From positions 1 to 18,606 of the forward strand of contig JACVXV010000058.1 of the NCBI GenBank assembly GCA_015661205.1: 18,606 nucleotides of DNA, in the 5' to 3' direction. The notes under the pieces were generated by a model. That model saw only the letters and a program-made list of their open reading frames with translations, was not told where the DNA came from and searched no databases. Source of the DNA: Candidatus Brocadiaceae bacterium (GTDB lineage: Bacteria; Planctomycetota; Brocadiia; Brocadiales; Brocadiaceae). Below, in pieces: positions 83 through 17,804 of this stretch. The position numbers and the translations under genes are program-made. The stretch's first letter is position 1; every line of letters begins with the position of its first letter.

Positions 83-1321
83 TCAGGATATCTGAACTTC
101 CACATCCCAGTTTAAATAATGGTTGCCGGGGACAATAATGCAACGTTGCGCAGACAATCTGAACTGTTTAACCATCTCTTTAAAAAATAGGTGCACCTGC
201 TCGTATTCTTGAGGCGTTCCCTTGTTGGTTAAATCACCCGATATGACCAGGTAGTCCAGTCGCTTATAGCCCAACCCCTCCTTTTCATCGGTTAAATCGC
301 TGATCAGCGGCTGCAATCTCACTGCCGGGTTGTCAGATTCACTGAAGTGCAGGTCGCTTAAATGCAAGATGCGCACAGGGGGGTGCTGTGTCTGCACCTC
401 CAACCTGCGCACCCATTCCCTGACGTCGTCATATGCCACCTTACCGCGTGTTGGGTCGAACAAAATCAGGGCAAGCGTCGTTTCCGGCAGAAAAAGCTGG
501 TTCACCAGCCGGTACTCATCCTGCCCGCCTAAATCCCTGAGAGATATCTCGCGCACCTCACCGGAGGGAGCAACCGCCTCAGGGTCTAACCGTTCGGACA
601 ATATCTTCCAGGTGCGCATCCCGTGCGTAGTCATCTGTTCTTCATAATCGCCCTTAGTCAGGCGAAGTGCCAGACATGACTTCCCGACGTTACTTTCTCC
701 CACTAACACGACCTTGGCACTTGTGTAACAGACAGGTACGGCAAACAGACCGTGACTCTCAACAGAGACGGTAGAAAGACCACTAATGGACGCGCCGACC
801 TCAGCTTTTATAATTAAGACGTCCGGCTTTCCAAGTTTTGTTGCTCCCAACGATACTTCAACAAACGGCTGTGCCATAAACCGGATTGCAACAAGATAGT
901 GTGGGGGCGGTATCTTGTTATGGGATTGCAACTCAGCGCCAGTTTCGGTATACCACACCTTGACGGTGCCGCCCACAGAACCAGAGGCAATCATGCGACT
1001 ATCGTATGAGAAGGATACCGACTGAACCGTGTCTCCATGACCTTCGAGCGTGCGCAAGAGTTTGCCCGTGTTTGCATCCCACACCCTGACGGTCTTGTCA
1101 TCAGAACCCGATGCAATCATGCAACCATCTGGGGAGAAGGCAACGGAATGGAAAGTGTCAGACGGTATATGTGCAGCAACGATACCCAGGTATGCGGTTG
1201 CAGGTGGGTGATGGATTTTATTTTGCTCATTTTGTGAACAAATCCTTTTAAAAAAGAGCAGCGGATTATGAATTCGGCTTAAGGTAACTATAAAATACCG
1301 CTCATAATTGCTTTTTACCAC
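83..1321 (-). CDS. Mosaic ORF: WD40 repeats, partial Roc/Ras-like GTPase (G1-G3 only) and N-terminal half of a calcineurin-like metallophosphoesterase; possible gene remnant or chimera
   Basis: Two clear WD40 repeats (SVAFSPDGCMIASGSDDKTVRVWD; SVSFSYDSRMIASGSVGGTVKVWY, about nt 947-1159). P-loop GESNVGKS (nt 677-700) and DLGGQDEY (G3), but no NKxD/SAK. Then metallophosphoesterase motifs LHLSDLHF (DxH), ISGDL (GD) and PGNHY (GNH-). The ORF opens with GTG and a non-protein-like 50-aa leader. It ends at TGA 83-85 straight after motif III. Confidence 0.45.
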   Translation of the reverse strand: MVKSNYERYFIVTLSRIHNPLLFFKRICSQNEQNKIHHPPATAYLGIVAAHIPSDTFHSVAFSPDGCMIASGSDDKTVRVWDANTGKLLRTLEGHGDTVQSVSFSYDSRMIASGSVGGTVKVWYTETGAELQSHNKIPPPHYLVAIRFMAQPFVEVSLGATKLGKPDVLIIKAEVGASISGLSTVSVESHGLFAVPVCYTSAKVVLVGESNVGKSCLALRLTKGDYEEQMTTHGMRTWKILSERLDPEAVAPSGEVREISLRDLGGQDEYRLVNQLFLPETTLALILFDPTRGKVAYDDVREWVRRLEVQTQHPPVRILHLSDLHFSESDNPAVRLQPLISDLTDEKEGLGYKRLDYLVISGDLTNKGTPQEYEQVHLFFKEMVKQFRLSAQRCIIVPGNHYLNWDVEVQIS

Positions 1322-1366
1322 TACTTTTTTCTTACTTATAAAATATATGCATCATTTATAAGAAAA

Positions 1367-1462
1367 CCGTAGGGTAGGCATCGCCCACCATTTGCATGCA
1401 CGAGCGTGTTTGGGTGTGTGGCGTTTGTAAGGCAGGTTGTTTATTGGCAGGCAGTGCCTTGT
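1367..1462. repeat. About 95-bp dispersed repeat, copy A (direct repeat partner of 2189-2286)
   Basis: Hand alignment to 2189-2286 gives about 88 percent identity (about 11 differences, mostly transitions, plus 1 indel). Shared core: CCACCATTTG.ATGCAC.AG.GTGTTTGGGTGTGTGGC..TTGTAAGG..GGTTGTTTATTGGCAGGCAGTGCCT. The ends can pair (ccgtagg 1367-1373 with cctacgg 1463-1469). Confidence 0.8.
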
Positions 1463-1523
1463 CCTACGGGCTCATCTAAGAGATTGACTTGGACTTTTGT
1501 ATTGCAACAACAAAAACGATGAT

Positions 1524-1829
1524 TCAAACAGCCAAAGGGAGGGATTTTAGGCTTTTTATTGAATTGATTTCCTTTTCTTTTGTAGACATTTCTTCTCTTA
1601 AATCATATTCCATCTGAAGACCCAGCCAGAAATCCGGCGTTGTACCAAAGAACTTTGAAAGGCGTAGCGCCGTATCCGCCGTGATCCGCCTTTTCCCTTT
1701 TATTATTTCAGATACCCTTGTCGGCGGCATTTTAGCTTCTTTCGCAAGTCTGTAAGCAGAAATATGGAAATCCTTGAGGAATTCTTCCTCAAGGATTTCT
1801 CCAGGATGAATATTAGGAACTTTTTTCAC
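1524..1829 (-). CDS. higA: HigA-family antitoxin (XRE-type helix-turn-helix)
   Basis: 101 aa. IHPGEILEEEFL...ISAYRLAKEAKMPPTRVSEIIKGKRRITADTALRLSKFFGTTPDFWLGLQMEYDL is the canonical HigA/VapI antidote signature. The GTG start overlaps the higB stop (GTGA, 1826-1829). Confidence 0.9.
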   Translation of the reverse strand: MKKVPNIHPGEILEEEFLKDFHISAYRLAKEAKMPPTRVSEIIKGKRRITADTALRLSKFFGTTPDFWLGLQMEYDLREEMSTKEKEINSIKSLKSLPLAV

Positions 1830-2125
1830 TTAAAACACCTTTCTAAATGGTAATCGACAATTTCTACGTCAGATGCGTTTGCATTATTCCAAATAAAGCA
1901 AATTCTCCATTGGTCATTTATTCGTATGCTGTATTGACCGATTCTATCGACTTTAAGTTTTTCCAGGCAATTTGCAGGCGGTATTCTCAAATCCTGCAAT
2001 TCCTTTGCCCTGTGGAGCATAAATAGTTTTCTTAAAGCAATGCGCTGAATAGAAATCGGAAACCTCAGCGATCTCTCCTGATTCCATATCTTTTCAGTTT
2101 CTTTGCATTTAAACGATAATATCAC
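1826..2125 (-). CDS. higB: HigB-family toxin (RelE/ParE superfamily, plasmid maintenance system killer type)
   Basis: ILSFKCKETEKIW...LRKLFMLHRAKELQDLRIPPANCLEKLKVDRIGQYSIRINDQWRICFIW...VEIVDYH matches the HigB family layout. The listed ORF (to 2215) runs into repeat copy B. I prefer the GTG at 2125 (GTG GTG ATA), which gives the family-typical M-I-x-S-F-K N-terminus, with TATTATA just upstream. The exact start is uncertain. Confidence 0.8.
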   Translation of the reverse strand: MILSFKCKETEKIWNQERSLRFPISIQRIALRKLFMLHRAKELQDLRIPPANCLEKLKVDRIGQYSIRINDQWRICFIWNNANASDVEIVDYHLERCFK

Positions 2126-2188
2126 CACGCTATAATAACGGTCGAAGATAATAACGTCAAGCAGGATTACTTGTTTTTGCCAGCCAAA

Positions 2189-2286
2189 CCCAGTAGGGTG
2201 GGCATTGTCCACCATTTGTATGCACTAGTGTGTTTGGGTGTGTGGCACTTGTAAGGATGGTTGTTTATTGGCAGGCAGTGCCTGCC
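2189..2286. repeat. About 95-bp dispersed repeat, copy B (direct repeat partner of 1367-1462)
   Basis: See copy A. It lies immediately upstream (minus sense) of higB, whereas copy A lies immediately upstream of the mosaic ORF. Confidence 0.8.
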
Positions 2287-5336: not shown

Positions 5337-6767
5337 TTAGATGTGTAACGATTTACCAAAAGTTGCGAGAGAGGCTTCCCAAATTGCCTCAGAAAGGGTT
5401 GGATGGGGAAATATGGCGTGAGAGACGTCAGCGGCGCTTCCCTTCAGGCTAGCGGCAAGCGAAGAACCCCACATCATTTCCCCTACATTTGGGCCAATGG
5501 CATGCATTCCTAATAATTGACCGTTCTTTTCATCGGTGATAATCTTTACGAATCCGTCTTCGTACTCTCCCTGGATAATTGCTTTGCTGTTTGCAATGAA
5601 TGGGAATCTTCCCGTCTTTACCTTGTACCCGTTGTTTTCCGCTTCAACCTGGGTGAGTCCCATGCTCGCCACCTCAGGATAACAGTAGGTCACTCGTGGT
5701 ATATTGGCATAGTTGATGGGAGCAGTTTCCTTACCGGAAATAGCAGAAACAGCGCGCAAACCCTCGGCTGACGCCTTGTGGGCAAGCAGGGGGGGGCCGG
5801 CAATGTCTCCTATGGCAAAAAGGCCTTTTTGCTCCGTTTCCATTACCCCGTTTGTTTGTAAATATTTCCCCTTATATGGTAACGAAAATGCCTCTATTCC
5901 CAAGTCAGACAAGTTAGGCGTTCTGCCCAATGCGAGAAGTAACTGATCGGCTTTAAAGCAGGTATCGTTGGGATGAATAGGGGGGGGGATTGTATCTGCG
6001 TTTCTTCGTATTGATACGTTAACTCCGCTATTAATTTCAACTTTTTCCAGCGAGGCATTTGTTACAATCTCTATGCCTCTCTTTGCAAACGTTTTCTTCA
6101 GGGTCTCTCTGACTTCCTTATCTTCAGCGGGCAGGATGTCAGGTGAAAGCTCGATTATGGTTACCCGTGCGCCAAGGATGTTGTAAAGATGGGCAAATTC
6201 TACCCCCAAAGAGCCTCCGCCTGCAATGATGATTGATTTTGGAACTTCTTCGCACTTCAGGGCGTCATCACTCGTAAGTACAAACTTCCCATCATAAGGG
6301 ATTGTTTGCGGGATAGCCGGTTTTGAGCCGGTGGCAAGGATGACGTTCTTTGCCGTAATCTCCGCAACGTCGATACCCTCTTTTTTTACGATAACGTTAT
6401 TGGGAGAAGTGAGTTGCCCTTTGCCCTCAAAAACATCCACGCCATTTTTTTTGAGGAGGAATTGTATCCCCTGGAATAGCCGCCTGATAATGGCTTCTTT
6501 ACGGCGATGAAATTGAGGGTAATTAAACGCCAGTTTATCAATGACAATTCCATACTCACTTACCTTCAGTAGCTTCCGATACATGTCTGCGGAATAAAGT
6601 AACGCCTTTGTTGGAATGCACCCCTGATGTAAGCACGCGCCACCAATCTTGTTTTTTTCAACAAGCGCGGTCTTTATTCCCAACTGGGACGCCTTGATTG
6701 CCGCGACGTAACCACCCGGTCCACCGCCGATAATTAACAAATCGTAGGCAGAGTTTCTTCCGGGCAA
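5337..6767 (-). CDS. lpdA: Dihydrolipoyl (dihydrolipoamide) dehydrogenase, E3 component
   Basis: 476 aa. FAD fold DLLIIGGGPGGYVAA, redox-active disulfide GGACLHQGCIPTK, C-terminal HPHPTLSEA interface motif. TTG start at 6767, preceded by AAGGAGGAG with 5-nt spacing. Confidence 0.9.
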   Translation of the reverse strand: MPGRNSAYDLLIIGGGPGGYVAAIKASQLGIKTALVEKNKIGGACLHQGCIPTKALLYSADMYRKLLKVSEYGIVIDKLAFNYPQFHRRKEAIIRRLFQGIQFLLKKNGVDVFEGKGQLTSPNNVIVKKEGIDVAEITAKNVILATGSKPAIPQTIPYDGKFVLTSDDALKCEEVPKSIIIAGGGSLGVEFAHLYNILGARVTIIELSPDILPAEDKEVRETLKKTFAKRGIEIVTNASLEKVEINSGVNVSIRRNADTIPPPIHPNDTCFKADQLLLALGRTPNLSDLGIEAFSLPYKGKYLQTNGVMETEQKGLFAIGDIAGPPLLAHKASAEGLRAVSAISGKETAPINYANIPRVTYCYPEVASMGLTQVEAENNGYKVKTGRFPFIANSKAIIQGEYEDGFVKIITDEKNGQLLGMHAIGPNVGEMMWGSSLAASLKGSAADVSHAIFPHPTLSEAIWEASLATFGKSLHI

Positions 6768-6965: not shown

Positions 6966-7433
6966 TCACTGACATGAAACAAATGTGACAGTACCACTAC
7001 CATAGCCAGACTCGACTCCTGTATCGAATGTTTCATGGACTATTTTTTGCTCTGTTCCATTAAGTGTAGCCGCATCTAATATTACATATATGTGTCCAGT
7101 GCTCATAAAATCTACGGTATCGCCTCTAGTGGAAACGAGTGTCATCAGGATGCTATCTTTCCCCATTTCTCTATTCATTTCTGCGCTGCCCATAACCGAG
7201 GAGACACCTCCATCAGTCCTCATAAATCTGCCATTACAGAGATAATGGTTTTCCCCCATATTGGTGATTCTCAGTGTCCGCACGCCAGCTAAGGAACCAT
7301 CACCACGATATACGTTCCAGCATCTCGTTCCTTTATGGCGCGGCCATGGTACTGAGGCCCAACTACTTGCAATGAAAGATAAGCTTATTAGACAAACCAA
7401 AAAAATAAAGCTGCAAAGACGGATAATCTTCAT
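6966..7433 (-). CDS. Secreted hypothetical protein (signal peptide, beta-rich, 3 Cys)
   Basis: Start moved to the internal ATG at 7433 (MKIIRLCSFIFLVCLISLSFIASSWA/SVPW), which is preceded by AAAGGAGAGG. It has a classical n-h-c signal peptide with an SWA cleavage context. I recognise no family. Confidence 0.6.
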   Translation of the reverse strand: MKIIRLCSFIFLVCLISLSFIASSWASVPWPRHKGTRCWNVYRGDGSLAGVRTLRITNMGENHYLCNGRFMRTDGGVSSVMGSAEMNREMGKDSILMTLVSTRGDTVDFMSTGHIYVILDAATLNGTEQKIVHETFDTGVESGYGSGTVTFVSCQ

Positions 7434-7509
7434 CTGAACCTCTCCTTTCTGAAATGATTTAATCATACAGATTAGCGGTGATAAAAGAACGAAACAATTT
7501 CAGACTGTC

Positions 7510-8040
7510 TCAACATAGCTCTCGCAATTTGATAAAAACTTTATCTATCAACTCAAACTTCTCATCAAAATCATAATATCCAATATCGCTTCGACCATGA
7601 CAGTGGACAGTAACGGTTTCTGTAAAAGGATTGACGCATACCACACGCTTTACGCCTATCGACAAATAATCTTGCACCTTGTCGTTGATTTTTCTAACCG
7701 TTTCATCTTCTGAGATTATTTCAACCACCAAGTCAGGCGGTATTTCAAGCATACCCACTGGTTTTTTAGGAGATGTTTTTTTGCTTATATAAACAACGTC
7801 TGCCGCCCTTAGTCTAAATGGCTTTTTTCTTATTACAACGCCAACTTCTCCAACTGCAACATAGCCCTCTGCCCCAAGATGTTTTCTCAATATCTCATAA
7901 AAAACACCCTCAAGATTACCGTGTCTGAATCCTGCAGGAGTCATGGGTACCATCTCCTCATCGATAATTTCATAATTACCATCAGGCAAAGAATTCACGT
8001 CACTATACGTATATACCTTTTTGTCTAATAAGGCTTTCAT
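7510..8040 (-). CDS. Uma2-family (DUF820) putative restriction-endonuclease-like protein, paralog 1
   Basis: 176 aa from the ATG at 8040 (MKALLDKKVYTY...). NYEIIDEEMVPMTP...H..., RAADVVYISK and IPPDLVVEIISEDE...K..DYLSIGVKRVVCVNP fit the Uma2 PD-(D/E)xK-like layout. It is the same length as the neighbouring paralog. Confidence 0.75.
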   Translation of the reverse strand: MKALLDKKVYTYSDVNSLPDGNYEIIDEEMVPMTPAGFRHGNLEGVFYEILRKHLGAEGYVAVGEVGVVIRKKPFRLRAADVVYISKKTSPKKPVGMLEIPPDLVVEIISEDETVRKINDKVQDYLSIGVKRVVCVNPFTETVTVHCHGRSDIGYYDFDEKFELIDKVFIKLRELC

Positions 8041-8080
8041 GTTGGTAATCCCTGTTCCGGTAACAATCAATCATTCAGTT

Positions 8081-8611
8081 TCAACACAACTCTCGCAATG
8101 TAACAAAAACGTTATCAATCAACTCAAACCTTTCATCAAAGTCATAATACCCGATATCGCTTCTACCTTGACAATGAACGGTAACAGTTTCTGCAAATGG
8201 ATTGATGCATACCACTCGTTTTACGCCTATCGATAAATAGTCCTGCACCTTATTGTTGATTTTTCCAGCCGTCTCATCTTCGGATATTATTTCAACCACC
8301 AAGTCAGGTGGTATTTCAAGCATACCAACAGGTTCACGAGGAGACATCTCTTTACTTACATAGACTACGTCAGCCGCCCTTAGCCTGAAAGGCTTTTTTC
8401 GTATTACAATACCTACTTCTCCAACAGCAACGTGACCTTTCGAACTAAGGTTCTTTCCCAATATTTCTGCAATTACGTATTCAAGTTTTCCATGCCTGAA
8501 CCCTGACGGTGTCATAGCCACCATTTCCCCATCAATTACTTCATAATTACCCTCAGGTAGAGAATTCACGTCGCTATACGTATATACCTTTTTATCTAAT
8601 AAGACGTTCAT
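8081..8611 (-). CDS. Uma2-family (DUF820) putative restriction-endonuclease-like protein, paralog 2
   Basis: 176 aa, about 81 percent identical (about 33 substitutions, no indels by eye) to paralog 1. It lies 40 bp upstream of paralog 1 on the same strand. Confidence 0.75.
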   Translation of the reverse strand: MNVLLDKKVYTYSDVNSLPEGNYEVIDGEMVAMTPSGFRHGKLEYVIAEILGKNLSSKGHVAVGEVGIVIRKKPFRLRAADVVYVSKEMSPREPVGMLEIPPDLVVEIISEDETAGKINNKVQDYLSIGVKRVVCINPFAETVTVHCQGRSDIGYYDFDERFELIDNVFVTLRELC

Positions 8612-8692: not shown

Positions 8693-10153
8693 TTAAGCGA
8701 TAGCAGCCGCCATAGCCGGCTTTTCAACAGTTACCGTGCTTGACTTATAACAGTCTTTATAGTAATCGCCCGAATCATACAACTCTTTCAAGTTCAGCAA
8801 CACCTGTTCAAAAACCTGTTTCCAGTCTGAACCTACCCTGAATGCAAACATGGAATTTCTTGGATTTTTCGTGGTATTGATAGAGTTCCTGAAGCGGGTT
8901 CTTAAGTTGTTGTTTGCGTAAATGTTGTCATAAACGTATTGCATACCCTCGATGAAATCTTCCAGTTTCATGTCCACGAAACGATGAACCACGTGTGCCG
9001 TATCGTAATATTGCCAATCATCCGGATAGTTCTTTCTGAAAATCCTCTTTTCAGAGTCCAATCTTGCGTAAAGCTGTGTTTTAGGGAAGGGGCAATTGAT
9101 ACCGAAGGTAAGGATATCAATATTGTTTTGTAGAATGAACTCCGTCATCCGCTTAAAGGAGTCCTTGCCGTCGCCGTCTGCGCCAAACACCACAGAACCC
9201 CAAACCACCAAGCCTGCGTCATGAATCTTTTGGATACAATCAAAATAACTATCCGTTCCCAACTTGAGGTTTACCCGCTTGTTCATCTTCTCCAAAACCG
9301 CTTCATTGGTAGACTCGATACCGATAAGCATGCCGAAACATCCGCTCTTTGCCATGTAATTCAACGTTTCCGCGTCCTGGGATATGTTTAAAGCAGTAAA
9401 TCCCAACCAATCCTTATGGATACCACGGTCTATCATGCCTTTGAAAAGATTACGCGCCCTTTCATTCGAATTCTTTCCATGTCCGTAAAAATTATCCTCA
9501 GCCAGCATCAAACCCTTGTAATCAGTTGCAGCCATTTCGTCAAGGACGTCCTCGAAGGGTCTCTCCCTGAATTTTCTGCCCTGGAAAGTAGGCACGCTGC
9601 AGAAGTCGCAATAGTTGGGGCATCCCTTCGTCGTTACGATGGAAGAAAACTTATAATCGTATTTCTTCTTCATAAGTTCGCGGTTTGGATACACCTTTTT
9701 CATAAGGCTAAGAGGGGGTAGGCCACCCTGATATATCTTTTTCAGTTTTCCCGCTTCAAAGTCCTTTATTACCTGTGGCCACAATTCTTCCGCTTCGCCC
9801 ACAAAAACGGCGTCGGCATAATTGGCAGCTTCTTCAGGCATAACAGAGGCGTGTATACCGCCCATAACAACGGGCATGCCTTTTTTCCTGCACGCAGCGG
9901 CTATTTTATATGCCCTTGGAGATTGGTAGGTAACAGCCGTAATGCAGACGAGGTCTACGTTCTTAAACGTAAGTTCGCCTTTATCATCAATAGCCAATTC
10001 AATATTTTCGTCTATAAGATCGAATTCCCATTCACCTGGAGTAAGAGCGGAAATATAGGCAAGGTTCAAAGGCATTTGAACGATCACCGTAATACTTTCC
10101 TCGCCATGTCTGCCAGGCATATGTGGATTAATTAACATCATTTTTCTTTTCAT
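8693..10153 (-). CDS. B12-binding-domain radical SAM enzyme (class B-like)
   Basis: CPNYCDFC (CX3CX2C) at nt 9599-9622. The N-terminal 150 aa have the Rossmann-like B12-binding-domain pattern (MLINP..., VDLVCITAVTYQSPRAYKIAAACRKKGMPVVMGGIHAS). I prefer the ATG at 10153, with GGAGGT 9 nt upstream, over the TTG at 10171. Confidence 0.85.
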   Translation of the reverse strand: MKRKMMLINPHMPGRHGEESITVIVQMPLNLAYISALTPGEWEFDLIDENIELAIDDKGELTFKNVDLVCITAVTYQSPRAYKIAAACRKKGMPVVMGGIHASVMPEEAANYADAVFVGEAEELWPQVIKDFEAGKLKKIYQGGLPPLSLMKKVYPNRELMKKKYDYKFSSIVTTKGCPNYCDFCSVPTFQGRKFRERPFEDVLDEMAATDYKGLMLAEDNFYGHGKNSNERARNLFKGMIDRGIHKDWLGFTALNISQDAETLNYMAKSGCFGMLIGIESTNEAVLEKMNKRVNLKLGTDSYFDCIQKIHDAGLVVWGSVVFGADGDGKDSFKRMTEFILQNNIDILTFGINCPFPKTQLYARLDSEKRIFRKNYPDDWQYYDTAHVVHRFVDMKLEDFIEGMQYVYDNIYANNNLRTRFRNSINTTKNPRNSMFAFRVGSDWKQVFEQVLLNLKELYDSGDYYKDCYKSSTVTVEKPAMAAAIA

Positions 10154-10161
10154 ACGATTAT

Positions 10162-11616
10162 TTACCTCCAATTCTCCATAATTAAATTAGCAACACCCCA
10201 ACCGGAAGAAACTACGGCACAAATTCCCGGGCCTGGTCTAGTCCAGTGTCCAGTCAAATACAGGTTGTCGATCGGCGTTTTTGGGGGTAATCTGTTTCCC
10301 CATATCTGATCCACCGTGACCGCCCAGCCATACGCGGCTCCATGGGTATTTGACGTATAACGCTCCAGGGTTTTCGGTGTGGCAGATTCCTTTACTTCTA
10401 TATACTTCCTTAAATCAGGAACAAAGGCCTCTAAGCGATTTACCGTGTTTTCCGTCAGGGTTTCTTTGAAAGACGGCCAATCGGTAACGTCCTGACACGA
10501 TTCCTCTTTCAAGGAAACAACTACGGAAATAATGTGCTTCTCCGAAGGCGCAAGGGTTGGGCAAATCCTTGTTGGCACGGACACATAGAGCCAATCACCA
10601 TCCGCATAACCGCTATCAGTTGACGTATGGTAAAACCCTCTCTTCAGGTTACTTAAGTCAACACCCTTGCCGACGCCCAAATACAAAAGAAAAAAAGAAC
10701 AACTTTCTTTCATTGACTTGATTTTATCGGTAAAAGGCACATCTGCTTTCCCTTTTAACAGCTCAAAAAAGGTTTGCCTTGCGTCGATATTTGAGACAAC
10801 CAAGCCTGAATGTATCTCTTTACCGTCATGTAGCTTAACGCTTTTTGCCATATTACCGTCAAAAAGTATTTCAATGGCTTTCGATGATAACATAACGTGT
10901 CCGCCGAAATCAATAAATTTCTTAAAAATCGCATTGGCAAACTCTTGCGTACCACCGGCAGGGAAAAATGCCCCGTCTTTAAGATAATTTATCATCATCT
11001 GGCACACGCCAATGGCAGAAGCCTTAGCAGGGGGGAGACCTATGTAACCGCACTGTCCGCCGAGTACCATTTTGAGTTCGTCATTGGTAAAAAAAGCGTT
11101 CAACACGTCCGCGTAGGTCTGGTCTTTATATTTGTCGATAAGCAAGCTCTTCTCATTATTGAAGGTGGCGCGGTAGAGCTTCGTAAACTCCTGGAAGAAT
11201 GCCTTGATGTTGTTTGCTTCAGCGGGATATCGCTGTTGTAATCGCGAAATGTATTCGTCCAAATATGCCGGGATTTCTATGGTGAAATAGGGGAAGATTA
11301 GGTGGTCCATAGGGTCGAGGGGATAAAATTCCATCTCAATCCCCAACGACTTCAAACACCTGCCGACGATGCCCCATTTCCCACAACCCCCGATGTGATG
11401 CACCGCCGCATCGAAGTTAAATCCCTTCCTTTTAAACGACGTGCAATAACCGCCGGGGATAAAATGTTGTTCTACAATGAGTATCTTTTTCCCGCTTTTT
11501 GCCAGAAACGCAGCACAAATAAGACCTGCGATACCGGCGCCAATAACAATCGCGTCATAACAGGGATACAGTTCACTCCTGCTTGTGGATTGTATAGCTC
11601 GTGCGGAAGGCGTCAT
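10162..11616 (-). CDS. Phytoene-desaturase (CrtI/CrtD)-family FAD-dependent oxidoreductase
   Basis: YDAIVIGAGIAGLICAAFLAKSGKKILIVEQHFIPGGYCTSF dinucleotide fold. C-terminal LYLTGHWTRPGPGICAVVSSGWGVA is typical of the family. I prefer the ATG at 11616 (4 nt after the upstream stop), because the longer listed ORF overlaps the preceding gene by about 100 nt. Confidence 0.85.
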   Translation of the reverse strand: MTPSARAIQSTSRSELYPCYDAIVIGAGIAGLICAAFLAKSGKKILIVEQHFIPGGYCTSFKRKGFNFDAAVHHIGGCGKWGIVGRCLKSLGIEMEFYPLDPMDHLIFPYFTIEIPAYLDEYISRLQQRYPAEANNIKAFFQEFTKLYRATFNNEKSLLIDKYKDQTYADVLNAFFTNDELKMVLGGQCGYIGLPPAKASAIGVCQMMINYLKDGAFFPAGGTQEFANAIFKKFIDFGGHVMLSSKAIEILFDGNMAKSVKLHDGKEIHSGLVVSNIDARQTFFELLKGKADVPFTDKIKSMKESCSFFLLYLGVGKGVDLSNLKRGFYHTSTDSGYADGDWLYVSVPTRICPTLAPSEKHIISVVVSLKEESCQDVTDWPSFKETLTENTVNRLEAFVPDLRKYIEVKESATPKTLERYTSNTHGAAYGWAVTVDQIWGNRLPPKTPIDNLYLTGHWTRPGPGICAVVSSGWGVANLIMENWR

Positions 11617-11620
11617 GAAA

Positions 11621-12862
11621 TTAAGGTTTGTATTTGGAGATGATGAGTGACGAACTATTACCGATTCGAGACGCGGTATTAATGAGGACGTTCTTAACCG
11701 GTACGGCCCTGCAGGTGTTAGGCACACAGTCTAAATCACATTCCGTGTCATGTTCCTGGTAATTGATGGTGGGGTGAACGGTGTGTGTCTTAATCGACAT
11801 TAATGAGGCTACCGTTTGCAGCGCACCCGATGCATCCAAACATTCACCGACCATGGATTTAATGGCCGGCGTAGGAATAAGGTTTGCCTTCATACCAAAG
11901 ACCTCTTTTATGGCATGTGTTTCCAATGCATCGCCGTAAACGCCTGAGTACGCGTTTGCAGAGATGCAAGAGATGTCTTGAATTGTCAATCCGGCGCTGT
12001 TAATGGCGTCCAACATAGCCTTCCTGACACCATCAGTCTGGTAATCTTTGCTGACCGCTATTTTCGGTTCAAAGGCAGTTCCATAACCCTTGACTTCGGC
12101 ATAAATATGGGCATTCCTCTTGAGGGCGTCTTCCAACGTTTCCAGGATCACCAACGCAGCCGCCTCTCCGAGAACCATCCCATTTCGCCTTTTATCGAAA
12201 GGAGCGCTTATTTCCAGTGTGCCCGACTTGCTTCCCGCCAATATTGTAGCGCTGTGAGAACCCCAGAATATGTCGTGCGTTAACCCATGCACGCCGCCTG
12301 CAACTATAGCCTTAACGCGTCCCATGCGGAGAAAGTCAGAGGCATAGATGATGGCGTCTACGCTACTCGTAACTCCGTTAGAAATGGTTGTACTAAGACC
12401 CGTTGCATTACAAAAAATGGATGCACGACTCGCTGGGGCATTTAACACGGTGTTGGGAAAATCCATCGGATTAACATAGTTAGGGCCTTCTTGCAACGAC
12501 TGGAAATCAAAGGAGCTAATACTGTCAATACTTCCATACGTCGAACCGACAACGATGCCTAATTCATCACTACTGTACGTGGTTTTCTCAATGTTTGCGT
12601 CCTTGATTGCAAGGGTTGTTGCAGATGATACAAGGAGGGAAGTCCTGTCTATATGGCGGATACCTTTCGGCCCTAAATAGACTTTAGCGTCAAAGTCAGT
12701 TATCTCTCCAGCTTGCTTGGAGTTAAACTTGCTCACGTCAAACAAGGTAATCGGTTTTATGCCCGATACCCCATTGGTCAGATTTTTCCAAAAGGTGTCT
12801 TTGTCAGACCCAAGAGGGGAGATGACTGAAACACCCGTTATAACAATTCTTGTATTTTCCAT
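11621..12862 (-). CDS. Ketosynthase paralog lacking the catalytic triad (chain-length-factor-like / KS-beta-like)
   Basis: Full KAS-II fold similarity to the adjacent FabF (IVITGVSVISPLG, PFDKRRNGMVLGE, IKSMVGE). At the positions aligned to Cys/His/His it reads Val (GTT at 12371-12373), Asn (ISANAYSG vs ISAHGTGT) and Glu (KSMVGECL vs KSMMGHTM). ATG at 12862, 17 nt after the fabF stop. Confidence 0.85.
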   Translation of the reverse strand: MENTRIVITGVSVISPLGSDKDTFWKNLTNGVSGIKPITLFDVSKFNSKQAGEITDFDAKVYLGPKGIRHIDRTSLLVSSATTLAIKDANIEKTTYSSDELGIVVGSTYGSIDSISSFDFQSLQEGPNYVNPMDFPNTVLNAPASRASIFCNATGLSTTISNGVTSSVDAIIYASDFLRMGRVKAIVAGGVHGLTHDIFWGSHSATILAGSKSGTLEISAPFDKRRNGMVLGEAAALVILETLEDALKRNAHIYAEVKGYGTAFEPKIAVSKDYQTDGVRKAMLDAINSAGLTIQDISCISANAYSGVYGDALETHAIKEVFGMKANLIPTPAIKSMVGECLDASGALQTVASLMSIKTHTVHPTINYQEHDTECDLDCVPNTCRAVPVKNVLINTASRIGNSSSLIISKYKP

Positions 12863-12879: not shown

Positions 12880-14100
12880 TTATCCTGTAAACTTTTTTAC
12901 CACCAGACAACTATTGTTACCGCCAAACGCATGGGCATTATTAAGCGCAATGTTAACTCGTTGCTTTCTCATAACGTTTGGCACATAATCAAGGTCGCAT
13001 TCAGGGTCCGGTGTTTCATAATTAATCGTAGGTGGCATAATATCATTCTGAACAACCAAGGCGCAGGTTATCGCCTCTATTGCGCTTGCCGCCCCCATGG
13101 TATGTCCCATCATAGATTTGATAGAACTGATTGCAAGATGTGCAGGTTTTTCACCAAAAACCTTTTTGATTGATATCGTTTCTGCTTTATCGTTAGCGGG
13201 AGTACCCGTTCCATGAGCGCTAATGTACTGAACGTCTTCCGGTTTAAGGTTTGCATTTTTTAAAGCCTTTTTCATGGCAGAGACGACACCTTCACCATCC
13301 GGATGGGGGATAGTGATGTGGTATGCATCACAACTCAATCCGTAGCCGGTGATTTCTGCATAAATGTGTGCGCCTCTCTTCATTGCATGTTCAAGAGACT
13401 CTAAAAGAAGCATACCGGCGCCTTCGCCCACCATCATCCCCTTCCTGTTTTTGTCAAAAGGCTGGCAAATATCAGGGGCTATCGCGCCCAACCTGGCGAA
13501 ACCTGTATAGGCAACCTTTGAGAAGGGGTCTGAACCACCGGAAACCATCATGTCAACCCGACCAAACTTTATCAAATCGTATGCATATCCAATTGCATAA
13601 TTACCAGCAGCGCAAGCAGTTGGGATAATCGTATTGGGTCCTTTAAATCCGAATTCTATGGCAATGTTGGCCGGGATGTTGTTGCAGGGATGCATGAGAA
13701 AAAGGGCGGGATCAACCTTGTCCTCGCCTTCTTTATGGCGGACATAATTGACCTTCTCAAGGATTTGTATCTCACCGGCAGTTGTTCCGACGGAGACGCC
13801 GACCCGTTCCATGTTGTACTTACTCAGATCAATCCTGGCGTCCGTTAATGCAAGCTGGGTTGCGGCAATTGCAAACTGAGAACCTTTACCGATCTTCTTA
13901 AGAACGCCATTTTTCACGTAATCGGAATAGTTGAAGTTCTTGACCTCACAGCCTTTATGCACCTTATAGTCTGAAGTATCGATGCACGCTACTTTTTCAA
14001 CTCCCGATGTTCCTGCGATGAGGGCCTTCCAAAATGTATCCCTACCCGCGCCAATAGGAGTAATCATCCCTACACCCGTTATAACAACACGTTTATTCAT
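12880..14100 (-). CDS. fabF: 3-oxoacyl-ACP synthase II (FabF-type), catalytic triad intact
   Basis: 406 aa. [12 protein letters not shown] (Cys163), [16 protein letters not shown] (His296), [15 protein letters not shown] (His333). The ATG overlaps the fabZ stop as ATGA (14097-14100). Confidence 0.9.
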
Positions 14101-14546
14101 AATAAAGCACTTTTCTCTGCTATTCCAAAAGTTAAATTTGCCTTTGCAACTACCGTTTCACCTACCTTTGCCGTCGCCTGAACAATGGCGCCTTTCGATA
14201 CAATCTTTTCTACCAGGACTTCTATAAAGATCTGATCTCCAGGGAAAACCGGTTTGGTAAATCGCGCGCTACTTACAGAGGCCAACAAAAAAATCTTGTC
14301 CTGTTCGATAGTAGCAGTGAGGCTTTTCTTGAAAAGAATGATAGACGCCTGTGCCATCGCCTCAATAATCAAAACGCCGGGAAAGATTGCAAAATCAGGG
14401 AAATGGCCTACAAAGACAGGTTCATTCCCGGAGACGTTTTTTACACAAATAATCCTCTTGCCTTCCTCAAATTCAGTGACTTTATCGATAAACTGAAAAG
14501 GGTATTTTTGTGGCAGAAGATTTCGGATTTCTTCAAAAGATATCAT
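14097..14546 (-). CDS. fabZ: 3-hydroxyacyl-ACP dehydratase (FabZ-type hot-dog fold)
   Basis: 149 aa. [36 protein letters not shown] (catalytic His and Glu context). ATG at 14546. Confidence 0.9.
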
Positions 14547-14584: not shown

Positions 14585-14854
14585 TTAAGATGAGAGTTTT
14601 CCACTTTCCGCTAAGACGGATTTGGTTAAGCCTATGGTAGCGCTTAACGACGTAATGTCTATTAGCTTTTCTTCAGGTATCTGCACTTTAAACTTTTTCT
14701 CAATGAGAGCAAGGATTTCCAGTGCCAATAGAGAATCAATCTCCAAGTCTTTAAAGAAATTAGCCTCCCGCTTGTCCCATATTTCCTTTTCGTCCAACTC
14801 TGTAACCTCAGCAACGATAGCGGTTACACCTTTTTCAATCTCTTCAGCGTTCAA
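14585..14854 (-). CDS. Acyl carrier protein
   Basis: 89 aa. FFKDLEIDSLLALEILALIEKKF carries the DSL phosphopantetheine-serine motif. TTG start at 14854 with AAGGAGGA 5 nt upstream. Confidence 0.85.
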   Translation of the reverse strand: MNAEEIEKGVTAIVAEVTELDEKEIWDKREANFFKDLEIDSLLALEILALIEKKFKVQIPEEKLIDITSLSATIGLTKSVLAESGKLSS

Positions 14855-14938: not shown

Positions 14939-14995
14939 TATGGTCAGCACATGCTAGCAGAGATATTTTATATTGTCAATAATATTCTGACCATA
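14939..14995 (-). promoter_or_regulatory. Putative sigma70-type promoter of the ACP operon, bracketed by a 9-bp inverted repeat (candidate operator)
   Basis: The minus strand reads TATGGTCAG-aatatta-TTGACA-(17 nt)-TAGCAT-gtg-CTGACCATA. The -35 is at 14979-14974 and the -10 at 14956-14951. The perfect half-sites are 14939-14947 and 14987-14995. Confidence 0.4.
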
Positions 14996-15108: not shown

Positions 15109-15732
15109 TCATTTCCCTTTCTTTGTTGTCCGTCTTTCCTCTGTCGATACCCTACGCCTCATTTTGTTCAACGTATTCAACGCCTTGTACACCTGAGACT
15201 CTAACAAAGATTCGTATGACGACAATTCGCCAGCCAGACTCTTCCCTTCCATAACCTTCAACGCCTTTAATTGTTTTAGTTCCTTGTCGGATCTTTTTCT
15301 TGTTCTGAAAAACCCCTGCTCATATTCCTGCACATCTGAGCTGCATAGTTCAATAATCTGCTTTTCAAACTTCAAGCATCGCTTCAATCTCCACGTGCTT
15401 GACGCGATTCTGTCTACAAGAATTGCCTCGACGTCATTCGTCGGTCTCAGCGCGTTCCTAAGACTTGTCCTTATTTCATCAAAGGCACAACCGTCTTCTC
15501 CGTCAATAACCACCTCGCTACTAAACAGGTTTTGCAAGGCCTTTGACTCAGTTACGATTGGCAGCGGAACTGCCTGGCTTTCCTGTTTACATTCCTGTGC
15601 AGTCTCCTTCGGCTGTTTTTCAACGGCATGATGTGGTGTTACAATGGTATCAATCAATTTGTCCACACCTTCTCTGCCTGAAGATTCCTTGTTTCCACTA
15701 CGTAGTACATTTTTTTTTAATATTGCAGCCAT
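15109..15732 (-). CDS. Hypothetical protein, charged/coiled-coil rich
   Basis: 207 aa. ATG at 15732 preceded by GAAAGGAAG. Lys/Glu-rich with predicted helical C-terminal half (LVDRIASSTWRLKRCLKFEKQIIEL...). I recognise no domain. Confidence 0.55.
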   Translation of the reverse strand: MAAILKKNVLRSGNKESSGREGVDKLIDTIVTPHHAVEKQPKETAQECKQESQAVPLPIVTESKALQNLFSSEVVIDGEDGCAFDEIRTSLRNALRPTNDVEAILVDRIASSTWRLKRCLKFEKQIIELCSSDVQEYEQGFFRTRKRSDKELKQLKALKVMEGKSLAGELSSYESLLESQVYKALNTLNKMRRRVSTEERRTTKKGK

Positions 15733-16038: not shown

Positions 16039-16086
16039 CTGTGGTTTCAGCAGTTTTTTCCATAATAACCTGTGGTTTCAGCAGTT
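16039..16086 (+). repeat. Two exact 17-nt direct repeats CTGTGGTTTCAGCAGTT in the queE leader
   Basis: Copies at 16039-16055 and 16070-16086 (31-nt period). The second ends at the queE ATG (16087). The first is preceded by AAT, completing a reverse-oriented iteron AATCTGTGG. Confidence 0.75.
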
Positions 16087-16722
16087 ATGAAGATTACCGA
16101 AATATTTAAAAGCATCGAAGGTGAAACGTCCTACGTGGGACTCCCCTGCTCCTTTATTCGCGTAACGGGCTGCAACCTGCGCTGTAGCTATTGCGACACC
16201 ACCTACGCTTACGAAGGCGGACGCGAAATGCCGATCCCTTCAATCCTTGAGGAAGTGAGAGGATTCAAAACGAAACTGGTCTGCATCACCGGCGGGGAAC
16301 CCTTGATAAATAAGGAAACGCCGTTATTGGCCGAAGAACTGCTCAAAAAACGTTATACCGTGCTGGTAGAAACAAACGGCGCTTGTGATATCCGCGCGTT
16401 GCCAAAGGCGGCTATTAAGATTATGGATTTAAAGTGTCCCGACAGCAACGCAAGCTCCCACATGCACTGGCAAAACATCGCGTATCTGACGCCTCAAGAT
16501 GAGGTAAAATTTGTCTTGTCTTCCCGAAATGACTATGAATGGGCAAAGGTTATAATACGGCAACATCGTTTAACTGACATTGCCAGGGTGCTAATAGGAA
16601 CGGCCTCCGGCTCAATCCCGCCCAAAACCGTTGTCCAGTGGCTCCTGGAAGACAACCTCAACGTGCGGTTTCAACTCCAAATACACAAATATATATGGGA
16701 TCAGCAGGCCAGGGGCGTTTGA
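16087..16722 (+). CDS. queE: 7-carboxy-7-deazaguanine synthase (radical SAM QueE)
   Basis: MKITEIFKSIEGETSYVGLPCSFIRVTGCNLRCSYCDTTYAY is the QueE N-terminal signature with the CX3CX2C cluster. I prefer the ATG at 16087 over the GTG at 16072. Confidence 0.9.
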   Translation: MKITEIFKSIEGETSYVGLPCSFIRVTGCNLRCSYCDTTYAYEGGREMPIPSILEEVRGFKTKLVCITGGEPLINKETPLLAEELLKKRYTVLVETNGACDIRALPKAAIKIMDLKCPDSNASSHMHWQNIAYLTPQDEVKFVLSSRNDYEWAKVIIRQHRLTDIARVLIGTASGSIPPKTVVQWLLEDNLNVRFQLQIHKYIWDQQARGV

Positions 16723-16778
16723 ATTGTCACACAGTAACGTTGCAAGGTAAAGCCACGGTTCGACGAAAGAACTTAAAA

Positions 16779-16805
16779 CCACAGATTACACAGATTTCAC
16801 AGATT
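16779..16805 (+). repeat. Solo array of three 9-bp iterons (CCACAGATT ACACAGATT TCACAGATT)
   Basis: Exact tandem 9-mers with the same unit and orientation as the R1 terminus, 57 nt downstream of the queE stop. Confidence 0.8.
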
Positions 16806-16824
16806 AAAAGCATGGAAGTTCAGT

Positions 16825-16931
16825 TATACTACGGACGGGCATAATTTAAACTTTTGAAAGTGTCGCAAATGCCAGATAACCATTGAACATGGCGGAACTT
16901 CGGTCTTTTGTAATGTTCAGTTTATGCCCGT
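16825..16931. repeat. Inverted repeat: 20-nt arms with a 67-nt spacer
   Basis: TATACTACGGACGGGCATAA (16825-16844) pairs with TTATGCCCGTTGGCAGTATA (16912-16931): 17 Watson-Crick pairs plus 1 G-T out of 20. Both arms are preceded by GTTCAGT. Confidence 0.6.
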
Positions 16932-16979
16932 TGGCAGTATAGTGTTAATAAAATCCATTGATACAGTCAATTTGATTAT

Positions 16980-17106
16980 TTATCTAATGAGGAACTCTGA
17001 AATCCTCATTAAAAAGAAGTGAAAATTAGTGCGTTGTATCTATCATAACAGGTACTATGTGAACCAATTGTAATTATTAGAACAATCTGTGTAATCTGTG
17101 GTTTCA
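16980..17106 (-). repeat. About 127-bp repeat element R2 (inverted copy of R1) with two terminal 9-bp iterons
   Basis: Its reverse complement aligns to R1. Iterons AATCTGTGT (17084-17092) and AATCTGTGG (17093-17101). It ends 27 nt upstream of the queC ATG. Confidence 0.8.
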
Positions 17107-17132
17107 AAGCTTTTTATCGTGATAGGTCATCA

Positions 17133-17804
17133 ATGAATGAACTTGCCATTATATTAGTCAGCGGCGGCATGGATAGTTGTGTGACTGCCGCCCTTGCAAG
17201 CGAGCGTTATCAGCCCGCGCTCCTGCACGTCAATTACGGCCAGCGCACGGAATCAAGAGAACTTAAGGCGTTCCGGGACATTGCCGCATATTATCACATA
17301 CCCGAAGACAGATTACTCATATCAAACATCGACCACCTCAGCAAAATTGGTGGTTCGAGTTTAACGGACGCCAGGATAGACGTCCAGCACGCACAACCAT
17401 CCAGTACAGAAATCCCAACCACGTATGTGCCATTCAGAAACACCCTTCTCTTAACCATTGCCGTTTCCTGGGGCGAGGTTATCGGGGCGTGCAAGGTATT
17501 TATCGGCGCAGTTGAGCAAGATAGCCCCGGTTATCCCGACTGCAAACCCGCTTATTATGAGGTATTCAACAGACTCATTAAGGCCGGCACAAAACCGGAC
17601 ACCTGCATTGAGGTGGAAACACCCCTTATTGATAAGTCAAAGACCGAGATCGTAAAACTGGGCATTGCGCTAAAAGCCCCCCTTCATCTGAGCTGGTCTT
17701 GTTACAAAAATTCCGACAAAGCCTGCGGCTTCTGCCAAAGCTGTTTCTTACGGTTAAAGGCCTTTCAGGAGGCCGGTGTGAAGGATCCTGTGATATACGA
17801 GTAG
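17133..17804 (+). CDS. queC: 7-cyano-7-deazaguanine synthase (QueC)
   Basis: 223 aa. PP-loop ILVSGGMDSC, LHVNYGQR, and a C-terminal zinc-binding Cys cluster (SWSCY...CGFCQSC). Confidence 0.9.
   Translation: MNELAIILVSGGMDSCVTAALASERYQPALLHVNYGQRTESRELKAFRDIAAYYHIPEDRLLISNIDHLSKIGGSSLTDARIDVQHAQPSSTEIPTTYVPFRNTLLLTIAVSWGEVIGACKVFIGAVEQDSPGYPDCKPAYYEVFNRLIKAGTKPDTCIEVETPLIDKSKTEIVKLGIALKAPLHLSWSCYKNSDKACGFCQSCFLRLKAFQEAGVKDPVIYE

Follow-up and report, generated by a model that had tools for sequence, protein, structure and literature searches.

A flavoprotein–radical SAM gene pair from a Brocadiaceae bacterium belongs to anammox Cluster I, a ladderane candidate whose gene architecture also occurs outside anammox bacteria

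In an 18,606-nt stretch of DNA from a Candidatus Brocadiaceae bacterium (contig JACVXV010000058.1; hereafter the window, in which all positions are numbered), two adjacent minus-strand genes encode a flavoprotein and a radical S-adenosylmethionine (SAM) protein. The upstream gene (10162..11616, 484 aa; PF13450 and PF01593) specifies a flavin adenine dinucleotide (FAD) flavoprotein resembling phytoene dehydrogenase (PDH) and CrtI, and is called PDH below; it is the orthologue of KustE3607. The downstream gene (8693..10153, 486 aa; PF04055 and PF02310) specifies a radical SAM (rSAM) protein with a B12-binding domain, the orthologue of the 'ladderane synthase' candidate KustE3608. The PDH reading frame ends in ENWR followed by TAA (10164-10162), from which 8 bases, ATAATCGT, lead to the ATG of the rSAM gene at 10153. 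A GGAGG Shine-Dalgarno motif for the latter (10165..10169) lies within the final two PDH codons, with 11 nt separating its 3' end from the ATG. Every position given in a preliminary description of the same DNA, made from its letters, proved correct. The PDH gene itself begins at ATG 11616, 4 nt past the stop of the preceding gene, which encodes a chain-length-factor-like protein (CLF); because of this spacing, and because a 484-aa homologue with 92% identity (P0121) has the same N-terminus, we place the start here rather than at the upstream GTG of the mechanically called open reading frame. The two genes are thus set very close together and the Shine-Dalgarno motif of the second falls within the first, as in a coupled gene pair; the sequence evidence is of tight operonic spacing and a ribosome-binding motif, and translational coupling itself is putative.

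The adjacency of the two genes is nearly invariant. Among 51 related loci in which the C-terminal end of PDH is present and followed by no less than 300 nt of sequence, and which span 35% to 70% GC (guanine plus cytosine), the rSAM gene lies directly 3' of PDH in 50. The estimated gap is at most 10 nt, with some overlaps, in 42 of these 50 pairs and 19-83 nt in the other 8. This pairing is far beyond chance. The exception (L133, 8327-15784) is the sole PDH-bearing locus without an rSAM gene downstream, none being present in the next 4.4 kb; in the same locus a 151-aa gene sits between CLF and PDH, and an opposite-strand gene of 357 aa follows PDH.

The pair closes a co-directional operon of six genes, which encode an acyl carrier protein (ACP), a FabZ-type dehydratase, a ketosynthase (KS), the CLF (an inactive KS), PDH and rSAM, all on the minus strand. 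The first gene, an amxACP orthologue of the KustE3603 type (14585..14854; PF00550, 51.2 bits), starts at a TTG with GGAGG 6 nt upstream, and about 100 nt upstream of this start lies the operon's best sigma-70-like promoter match (14951..14979, minus strand; TTGACA-17-TAGCAT with TG, 10 of 12 positions), which is a consensus match only. It is followed by an orthologue of amxFabZ, the KustE3604-type 3-hydroxyacyl-ACP dehydratase (14097..14546; PF07977 FabA-like, 89 bits), whose stop overlaps the KS start in the tetranucleotide ATGA. The KS gene, an amxFabF2 orthologue (12880..14100), encodes an active ketosynthase with both the N- and C-terminal Pfam ketoacyl-synt domains and the triad Cys-His-His. 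In the amxFabFmut orthologue (11621..12862), which probably starts at ATG 12862 although the mechanical reading frame begins at TTG 12910, this triad is replaced by Val/Asn/Glu. The second KS is therefore CLF-like by loss of its triad, and the same residues, Val/Asn/Glu after a first KS with Cys/His/His, occur in Kuenenia. As a side observation, the third triad position of the CLF is always acidic (Glu or Asp; motif G/R-[ED]-C-[LF]-[DE]) and the first two vary in the window and in L001, L083, L087, L092, L097, L114 and L139. No terminator-like site was found on the minus strand 3' of the rSAM gene. The operon bears out the link to an ACP-based pathway drawn in the preliminary description.

We tested membership of curated families by comparing NCBIfam bit scores with the cutoff of each model; 22 families were returned for the window proteins. 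Two of the operon's proteins show some resemblance to the type II polyketide synthase (PKS)-like machinery that forms the ring of cispentacin: FabZ scores 109 bits against AmcE (cutoff 140) and KS 245 bits against AmcF (cutoff 325). With both scores below cutoff, membership of that machinery is rejected, and the resemblance may serve by analogy as a precedent for carbocycle formation by enzymes of fatty-acid-synthase (FAS) type, a lead rather than an assignment. An aryl-polyene cluster was also considered and rejected, the dehydratase giving weak ApeI/ApeP-like hits only; aryl-polyene clusters are not known to have a PDH or rSAM.

Comparison with Kuenenia stuttgartiensis (CP049055.1, our reference locus L001) identifies the operon. 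Identities are 92% for ACP, 77% for FabZ, 87% for KS, 79% for CLF, 69% for PDH and 84% for rSAM, the orthology of PDH and rSAM to KustE3607 and KustE3608 is full-length, and the window rSAM falls inside the clade of anammox Cluster I enzymes described below. The six genes, ACP, FabZ, FabF2, FabFmut, PDH and B12-rSAM, stand on one strand in an order shared with Kuenenia and about 45 anammox-type loci. The best homologues of both proteins all come from Brocadiales (Brocadia, Jettenia, Kuenenia, Scalindua, Anammoxibacter and Tripitaka), and the nearest contig is the metagenome sequence Ga0315281_10004069, with 96% identity for rSAM and 91% for PDH. The GC content of the window, 0.44, is within the anammox range; no hydrazine synthase genes are present in the window. 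The Kuenenia cluster is also alike in its equally tight PDH–rSAM spacing and in a dihydrolipoyl-dehydrogenase-type (Lpd) gene downstream, and differs in that the window has two Uma2 genes and a gene for a 166-aa hypothetical protein between rSAM and Lpd, and a 207-aa gene upstream of the operon. All of the anammox lineages sampled have Cluster I. It is virtually certain that the pair represents the Cluster I orthologues of KustE3607 and KustE3608.

The gene pair has accordingly been described before, and our analysis re-derives a published ladderane candidate. KustE3603-3608, or 'Cluster I', is the consensus candidate for ladderane lipid biosynthesis, being conserved and highly expressed. Rattray et al. 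(2009) proposed that such clusters desaturate an acyl chain and then cyclise it by radical chemistry, and the ladderane hypothesis for KustE3607 and KustE3608 is on record in several places (PMC2649909; PMC10139942; Nat Prod Rep 2026, PMC13459092). The enzyme has been termed 'ladderane synthase' and never isolated (PNAS 2026, PMC13598231), and in reviews the similarity networks of B12-dependent rSAM proteins contain the 'ladderane' enzyme as a node that awaits characterisation. The reading offered in the preliminary description, desaturation of an acyl-ACP followed by radical C–C bond formation, or else methylation as the more conservative option, coincides with this hypothesis and to that extent stands, although its long-chain version is disfavoured by the preference of the cluster's enzymes for C6-C8 substrates; on the whole, that interpretation is a re-derivation that our results partly support.

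The rSAM protein has the domain layout of class B enzymes. A B12-binding domain (PF02310, residues 28-126; 43.3 bits, cutoff 32.1) precedes the radical SAM domain (PF04055, residues 172-339; 51.3 bits, cutoff 29.5), and the sequence CPNYCDFC (9599..9622, minus strand; residues 178-185) provides the CxxxCxxC motif for a [4Fe-4S] cluster. Both the motif and the N-terminal domain had been recognised in the preliminary description. With this motif and a domain above the Pfam threshold the protein belongs to the radical SAM superfamily, and with an N-terminal B12-binding Rossmann domain and an rSAM barrel it has class B architecture. In an alignment of 18 homologues, no cysteine other than C178, C182 and C185 is invariant, and hence a single Fe-S cluster is expected. 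The motif DxHxxG is not present, as is usual for class B enzymes. In an AlphaFold (AF2) model (predicted local distance difference test (pLDDT) 82, predicted template-modelling score (pTM) 0.84), a Rossmann domain is followed by a barrel and a tail of helices, and its Foldseek neighbours, with template-modelling (TM) scores of 0.58-0.65, are AprD4 (0.65), CysS (0.62), TsrM, OxsB and MgmA. By sequence, the best matches in the PDB are MgmA/QCMT (9ccb, E 6e-9), then AprD4, TsrM and TokK. The known structures of class B or B12-domain enzymes (MgmA/QCMT 9ccb, CysS 9n1b, TsrM 6wte, TokK 7kdx, OxsB 5ul4 and AprD4 6fd2) have in common an N-terminal Rossmann domain of B12 type, a radical SAM barrel and a C-terminal domain made of helices, but are only 12-17% identical to the window protein, and as a group they cover methylation, ring contraction and dehydration. 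The architecture is that of class B, and it is compatible with methylation, ring chemistry or some other reaction, between which neither the fold nor the sequence decides.

No NCBIfam model reaches its cutoff with the rSAM protein. The best-scoring curated family is TIGR04072, rSAM_ladder_B12 (94.2 bits, cutoff 360), to which the protein does not belong; this family probably covers other rSAM proteins shared with Deltaproteobacteria, as suggested by distant Geobacter-type contexts with the order rSAM-rSAM-KS-KS-FabZ (L014, L021). Lower scores were obtained with HpnJ (84 bits, cutoff 578), PhpK (79, cutoff 600), HpnR (TIGR04367; 76, cutoff 650), BchE (TIGR02026; 69.5, cutoff 481), the QCMT type (66, cutoff 360) and the TsrM type (37, cutoff 500), and the HpnP model was not among the 22 families returned. 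Identification as an HpnP/HpnR hopanoid methylase, HpnJ, BchE, PhpK or QCMT is rejected with scores far under cutoff. The protein lies outside HpnR, BchE and the other curated class B families; the tight grouping with known lipid C-methyltransferases, named in the preliminary description as part of what would refute its reading, is therefore not seen.

The flavoprotein carries the FAD-binding GxGxxG motif as GAGIAG (residues 26-31), matches NAD_binding_8 (PF13450) and, over residues 29-479, Amino_oxidase (PF01593; 45.8 bits, cutoff 19.8), and aligns end to end with CrtI (PDB 4dgk; residues 23-482, E 2.8e-27), so that the GxGxxG motif and the amine-oxidase-type fold of the CrtI family extend over its full length. 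Against the model of the CrtI family proper (TIGR02734 crtI_fam) it scores 169 bits for a cutoff of 238.1, and it is not a member; nor does any other NCBIfam model reach its cutoff with this protein. Its C-terminal signature, NLYLTGHWTRPGPGI, is divergent, and it does not match what we take to be the PROSITE pattern for CrtI-type C-termini. Of the two features ascribed to the flavoenzyme in the preliminary description, the GxGxxG fold is present and the C-terminus is related to the CrtI type but divergent. The subfamily has an invariant motif of its own, FDAAVHHIGG. The AlphaFold model is poor (pLDDT 61). CrtI from Pantoea (4dgk) and CrtISO/CrtH share with the flavoprotein the GxGxxG motif, an amine-oxidase-type fold throughout and a related C-terminal motif, and differ in that the window flavoprotein stands in a fatty-acid gene context and not among carotenoid genes. 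Its sequence is that of a distant CrtI relative, which may be a desaturase, an isomerase or a reductase. Kuste3607, the Kuenenia orthologue with 69% identity, gave no lycopene when put in place of crtI (Javidpour et al. 2016, PMC4790861), which speaks against a desaturase confined to carotenoids, another possibility that the preliminary description had raised against itself. A carotenoid pathway is rejected on this negative complementation, the absence of crt genes from the window and the conserved FAS-type context.

A metagenome scan seeded with motifs of the PDH subfamily gave 63 loci, and genome contigs were scanned with the rSAM alignment. Among the 600 stretches listed by the latter scan, most were generic class B enzymes at 28-38% identity, and at least 4 loci among the matches listed had an rSAM identity of at least 50%. 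In a neighbour-joining tree with bootstrap, a long branch lies between a family of KS/CLF-linked B12-rSAM proteins and the generic enzymes of class B. Within it, the anammox Cluster I proteins, the window rSAM included, form clade A (79% bootstrap); clade C (100% support) comprises the proteins of clusters with the order ACPS-rSAM-KS-KS, the architecture of Kuste2802-2805; clade D (P0054-P0095; L089) is a third anammox paralogue, solitary in the one locus read (L089); and clades B and E/F are non-anammox. The deep branching order is poorly supported (3-6%). Anammox Cluster I rSAM proteins are only 54-62% identical to non-anammox ones, and anammox genomes hold two further paralogues at 50-60% identity, those of clade C (P0098-P0120) and clade D, with L005:9615-14277, L006 and L089 as example loci of the two. 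Kuste2803, from a cluster of ACPS, rSAM, FabF and FabB-like genes (Kuste2802-2805), illustrates clade C: it is of the same family (50-53% identity) and has the same domain layout with a partial DUF4070 tail, likewise beside a KS pair, but it belongs to a separate, well-supported clade, its cluster lacks PDH, ACP and FabZ, and the rSAM gene precedes the KS genes. For rSAM proteins of at least 50% identity, a KS pair adjoins in every clade context read except that of clade D, with or without PDH. We take this linkage as the strongest in-silico hint that the substrates of the rSAM are intermediates bound to the carrier of an elongation system of its own.

The six-gene architecture is found both within and beyond anammox bacteria. 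All anammox-type contigs (GC 0.35-0.52) hold the six genes in order, and Brocadia-type contigs add the 207-aa gene upstream and the Lpd-type gene downstream. Modules in the same order are also found in contigs of 50-76% GC: L139 (GC 0.50), L083/L084, L090-L096, L100, L142 and L143 (GC 0.54-0.63), L097-L099 (GC 0.68-0.70), which have a second rSAM and another KS pair in addition, and L140 (GC 0.76). At L087 (4101-21437; JGI 3300082212, contig Ga0672940_0000111; GC 0.66), a Cluster I-like module is part of a supercluster of 17 genes. Besides two rSAMs and three KS pairs, these encode a ferredoxin, a ketoreductase (KR), a crotonase, a FabH/chalcone-synthase (CHS)-like enzyme and proteins resembling an SRPBCC cyclase, a muconolactone isomerase and a formylglycine-generating-enzyme (FGE)-sulfatase. 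Here the module is fused with an rSAM-KS-KS unit of the Kuste2802-2805 type that in anammox genomes lies elsewhere, which hints at a possible functional link between the two. In the non-anammox modules the first KS retains Cys-His-His and the second has lost the triad. At seven non-anammox loci the GC content of the module equals that of its flanks, and on this ground assembly chimerism or recent transfer is rejected as their source. The rSAM or PDH proteins of these modules either belong to or are closely related to clusters at 90% identity that are labelled, from metagenome-assembled genomes (MAGs), as Acidobacteria, Terriglobales, Blastocatellia, Vicinamibacteria, Myxococcota and high-GC Planctomycetota. 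A search for a cultured carrier of a non-anammox module returned MAG and metagenome proteins only.

Thus, anammox bacteria are not alone in having the cluster architecture. In a preprint of 2026 Cluster I is described as unique to producers of ladderanes, and generic 'ladderane' calls by antiSMASH in non-anammox phyla are already in the literature. We regard it as nearly an even question, leaning slightly towards no, whether Cluster I is the anammox representative of a wider, previously undelineated family of ACP/dehydratase/KS/CLF/PDH/B12-rSAM modules, the uncertain part being a shared chemistry. Two looser arrangements were seen besides. In high-GC Planctomycetota-labelled MAGs the rSAM stands in a KS-KS-rSAM unit without an adjacent PDH (L086/P0097 with P0323; P0089 with P0327), and in both cases the rSAM and a PDH of the same subfamily have the same longest contig on record (884,128 bp for P0097/P0323 and 479,528 bp for P0089/P0327), which suggests a split module with both genes on one contig, not adjacent. 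At L027:7900-11194, labelled Thermodesulfobacteriota, a distant PDH (33%) and a B12-rSAM (35%) lie about 650 nt apart without KS genes; Rattray et al. noted a pairing of Deltaproteobacteria type, of which this may be an instance.

We consider a role of the pair in ladderane biosynthesis fairly probable, and the explanation we favour, to which we give a little better than an even chance, is that the Cluster I pair acts on short amxACP-bound intermediates and that the rSAM forges the C–C bonds of the ladder. The KS/CLF heterodimer and the dehydratase of the cluster would supply amxACP-tethered short acyl or enoyl intermediates, in which the flavoprotein, through an FAD-dependent dehydrogenation or isomerisation, would introduce C=C bonds or shift their position. 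The rSAM would reductively cleave SAM at its single CxxxCxxC [4Fe-4S] cluster, and the 5'-deoxyadenosyl radical, with cobalamin as helper, would give the new C–C bonds of the cyclobutane ladder. Rings would be built stepwise during chain growth or by ligation of pre-made parts, not in one cascade along a long polyene. Which substrates are used, how rings are formed, the involvement of cobalamin and even the tie to ladderanes we only infer, and the specific stepwise C–C-forming mechanism is a tentative proposal, in our view somewhat more likely wrong than right.

Several lines of published work are consistent with such a scheme. Heterodimer formation by KS and CLF has been shown in anammox (bioRxiv 10.64898/2026.05.19.726425), and characterisation of amxFabZ and of the amxFabF2/amxFabFmut heterodimer revealed a preference for C6-C8 substrates (Dietl et al. 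2023; Granatino et al. 2026); because of this preference, stepwise or convergent models fit better than desaturation of a long acyl-ACP followed by cyclisation. The authors of both studies favour convergent or stepwise models, and stepwise and ligation models of ladderane assembly have been published. Moreover, those cobalamin-dependent rSAM enzymes that do not methylate all carry out ring formation or rearrangement (PNAS 2026, PMC13598231). A template for the stepwise model, by functional analogy only, is the rSAM cyclopropanase Jaw5/C10P of jawsamycin biosynthesis, which forms small, contiguous rings while the enoyl chain grows on its carrier. Jaw5 is of the HemN-like type, lacks a B12 domain and has a type I iterative PKS as its partner.

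A number of points weigh against the favoured explanation. Activity has been demonstrated in published work for neither PDH nor rSAM. When kuste3603-3608 were expressed in E. coli, some soluble Kuste3608 was obtained (Javidpour et al. 2016, PMC4790861); according to Dietl et al., the radical SAM enzyme was not generated in that expression, and neither ladderanes nor polyunsaturated fatty acids were formed (PMC10139942). The best NCBIfam model for the flavoprotein is that of carotenoid isomerase (TIGR02730; 176.5 bits, cutoff 586.9), not that of a desaturase. For the rSAM, the closest PDB sequence match, MgmA/QCMT, is a C-methyltransferase, as are most class B enzymes, and a review places AprD4 among enzymes unrelated to the B12-dependent group (Chem Sci 2026); since AprD4 is the best structural match, cobalamin use by the rSAM is only predicted. 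Finally, six-gene modules lie on contigs with proteins that group with those of MAGs labelled Acidobacteriota and Myxococcota, phyla without any report of ladderanes.

The best of the alternatives, though still unlikely at about one chance in four, is that the rSAM is a cobalamin-dependent C-methyltransferase acting once or iteratively on an ACP-bound chain. The C1 units would become ring carbons, via cyclopropane intermediates that rearrange to the ladder, or the branches of methyl-branched fatty acids, and the flavoprotein would supply the alkene acceptor or reduce a methylene intermediate. Methylation is the majority chemistry of class B, and beyond QCMT/MgmA, which is a Csp3 methyltransferase, the structural neighbours CysS and TsrM also methylate. 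CysS, crystallised with pantetheinylated substrates, does so iteratively on a pantetheine-bound substrate. Anammox bacteria also contain 10-methylhexadecanoic acid. A methylation/cyclopropane route is among the published proposals, and isotope labelling of ladderanes is at odds with plain assembly from acetate (PMC10139942). However, cyclopropyl fatty acids, like polyunsaturated ones, have not been found in anammox cells (PMC10139942), the scores against the methylase families HpnR, PhpK, QCMT and TsrM (76/650, 79/600, 66/360 and 37/500 bits) fall far under their cutoffs, and a simple branch methylase needs no ACP, KS/CLF and dehydratase of its own.

Only slightly less probable, at about one chance in five, is that the module is not specific to ladderanes and makes some other lipid or polyketide building block common to anammox bacteria, some Acidobacteriota, Myxococcota and non-anammox Planctomycetota, the rings being made elsewhere, for example by a Kuste2803-type paralogue cluster. 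The same-order modules at 50-76% GC, matched in GC to their flanks and with the KS/CLF split kept, agree with this, as do the two additional anammox rSAM paralogues of clades C and D; an earlier review picked Kuste2803, not Kuste3608, as the cyclobutane candidate. On the other hand, the anammox Cluster I rSAMs form a clade of their own (79%) at 54-62% identity to the others, so that their chemistry may differ; Cluster I is highly expressed and occurs in every anammox lineage sampled; and the lineages with the module are represented by MAGs only, our search having found no cultured carrier.

The literal form of the preliminary description, in which the CrtI-like enzyme would turn a long saturated acyl-ACP into an all-trans polyene ('type a') and the rSAM would fold the ladder in one radical cascade, is improbable. 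It follows the domain logic of the pair and corresponds to the original proposals of Sinninghe Damste and of Rattray, but polyunsaturated fatty acids were found neither in anammox bacteria nor in E. coli expressing the genes (PMC10139942), the cascade was calculated to be endothermic (PMC4790861), and the route has been termed 'unsupported by experimental data' in the literature. Furthermore, amxFabZ and KS/CLF favour C6-C8 over long chains, and KS/CLF with a dehydratase and no enoyl reductase could yield (poly)enoyl chains without any desaturase, as in a highly reducing type II PKS. Isoprenoid tailoring, that is, carotenoid, squalene or hopanoid desaturation and C-methylation by a pair that neighbours fatty-acid genes by chance, has next to no probability and is effectively refuted by the conserved FAS-type context, for although automated annotations (phytoene dehydrogenase, prolycopene isomerase, bacteriochlorophyllide methyltransferase) and a weak family resemblance to CrtI, CrtISO, HpnR and HpnJ point that way, scores against all four are far under cutoff, Kuste3607 does not complement CrtI (PMC4790861), the window contains no isoprenoid genes, and about 60 loci from different phyla keep the pair in synteny with ACP, FabZ and KS/CLF.

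Other genes of the window have uncertain or no ties to the operon. Upstream, a gene for a hypothetical protein of 207 aa (15109..15732, minus strand) has no Pfam hit, and its membership of the system is uncertain; copies with 43-55% identity lie upstream of ACP in 21 anammox metagenome loci on Brocadia-type contigs, and no upstream copy was detected in Kuenenia, in Scalindua-type loci (about 60% PDH identity) or in non-anammox loci. Downstream, the Lpd-type flavoprotein (5337..6767, minus strand; TIGR01350, 504.9 bits, cutoff 408.8) has counterparts 3' of rSAM in Kuenenia (58% identical) and in many Brocadia-type loci (57-91%). It is absent from Scalindua-type and non-anammox loci, and for this reason its proximity probably reflects synteny rather than function, although it could be a redox partner. 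Between rSAM and Lpd (6966-8611, minus strand), the window has two tandem genes of the Uma2 family, putative restriction endonucleases whose proteins are 81% identical, inserted together with the gene for the 166-aa hypothetical protein, which has a hydrophobic N-terminus. At the nucleotide level, default blastn (word size 28) gave no alignment between the Uma2 genes despite this protein identity. Because a single Uma2 gene is found in L115 and L141 and none in Kuenenia, this interval appears to be a variable spot. The remaining neighbours (83-2215, minus strand, and 16072-17804, plus strand) are unrelated: a WD40/Roc GTPase/metallophosphatase fusion, a HigB/HigA-type toxin–antitoxin pair, and a small radical SAM protein encoded on the plus strand beside QueC of the queuosine pathway.

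The assembly of ladderanes, linearly fused cyclobutanes made without oxygen, is a long-standing unsolved problem of lipid biochemistry, and in the field suspicion for the formation of the rings falls first on this gene pair. Its re-derivation from raw sequence adds nothing new to the field; the comparative result, comprising the near-invariant adjacency of PDH and rSAM, the tie of rSAM to KS/CLF in almost all contexts read and the six-gene modules outside anammox bacteria, may be helpful. These modules qualify the claim that the cluster is unique to ladderane producers. Should Cluster I indeed represent a wider family, then either ladder-type or cyclobutane lipid chemistry would extend beyond anammox bacteria, or Cluster I would make a generic precursor that other genes turn into the ladder. 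On both views the high-GC homologues would be new and possibly more expressible enzymes for the study of ladderane biosynthesis, offering alternatives for a reconstitution that has hitherto been blocked by the poor expression of anammox proteins.

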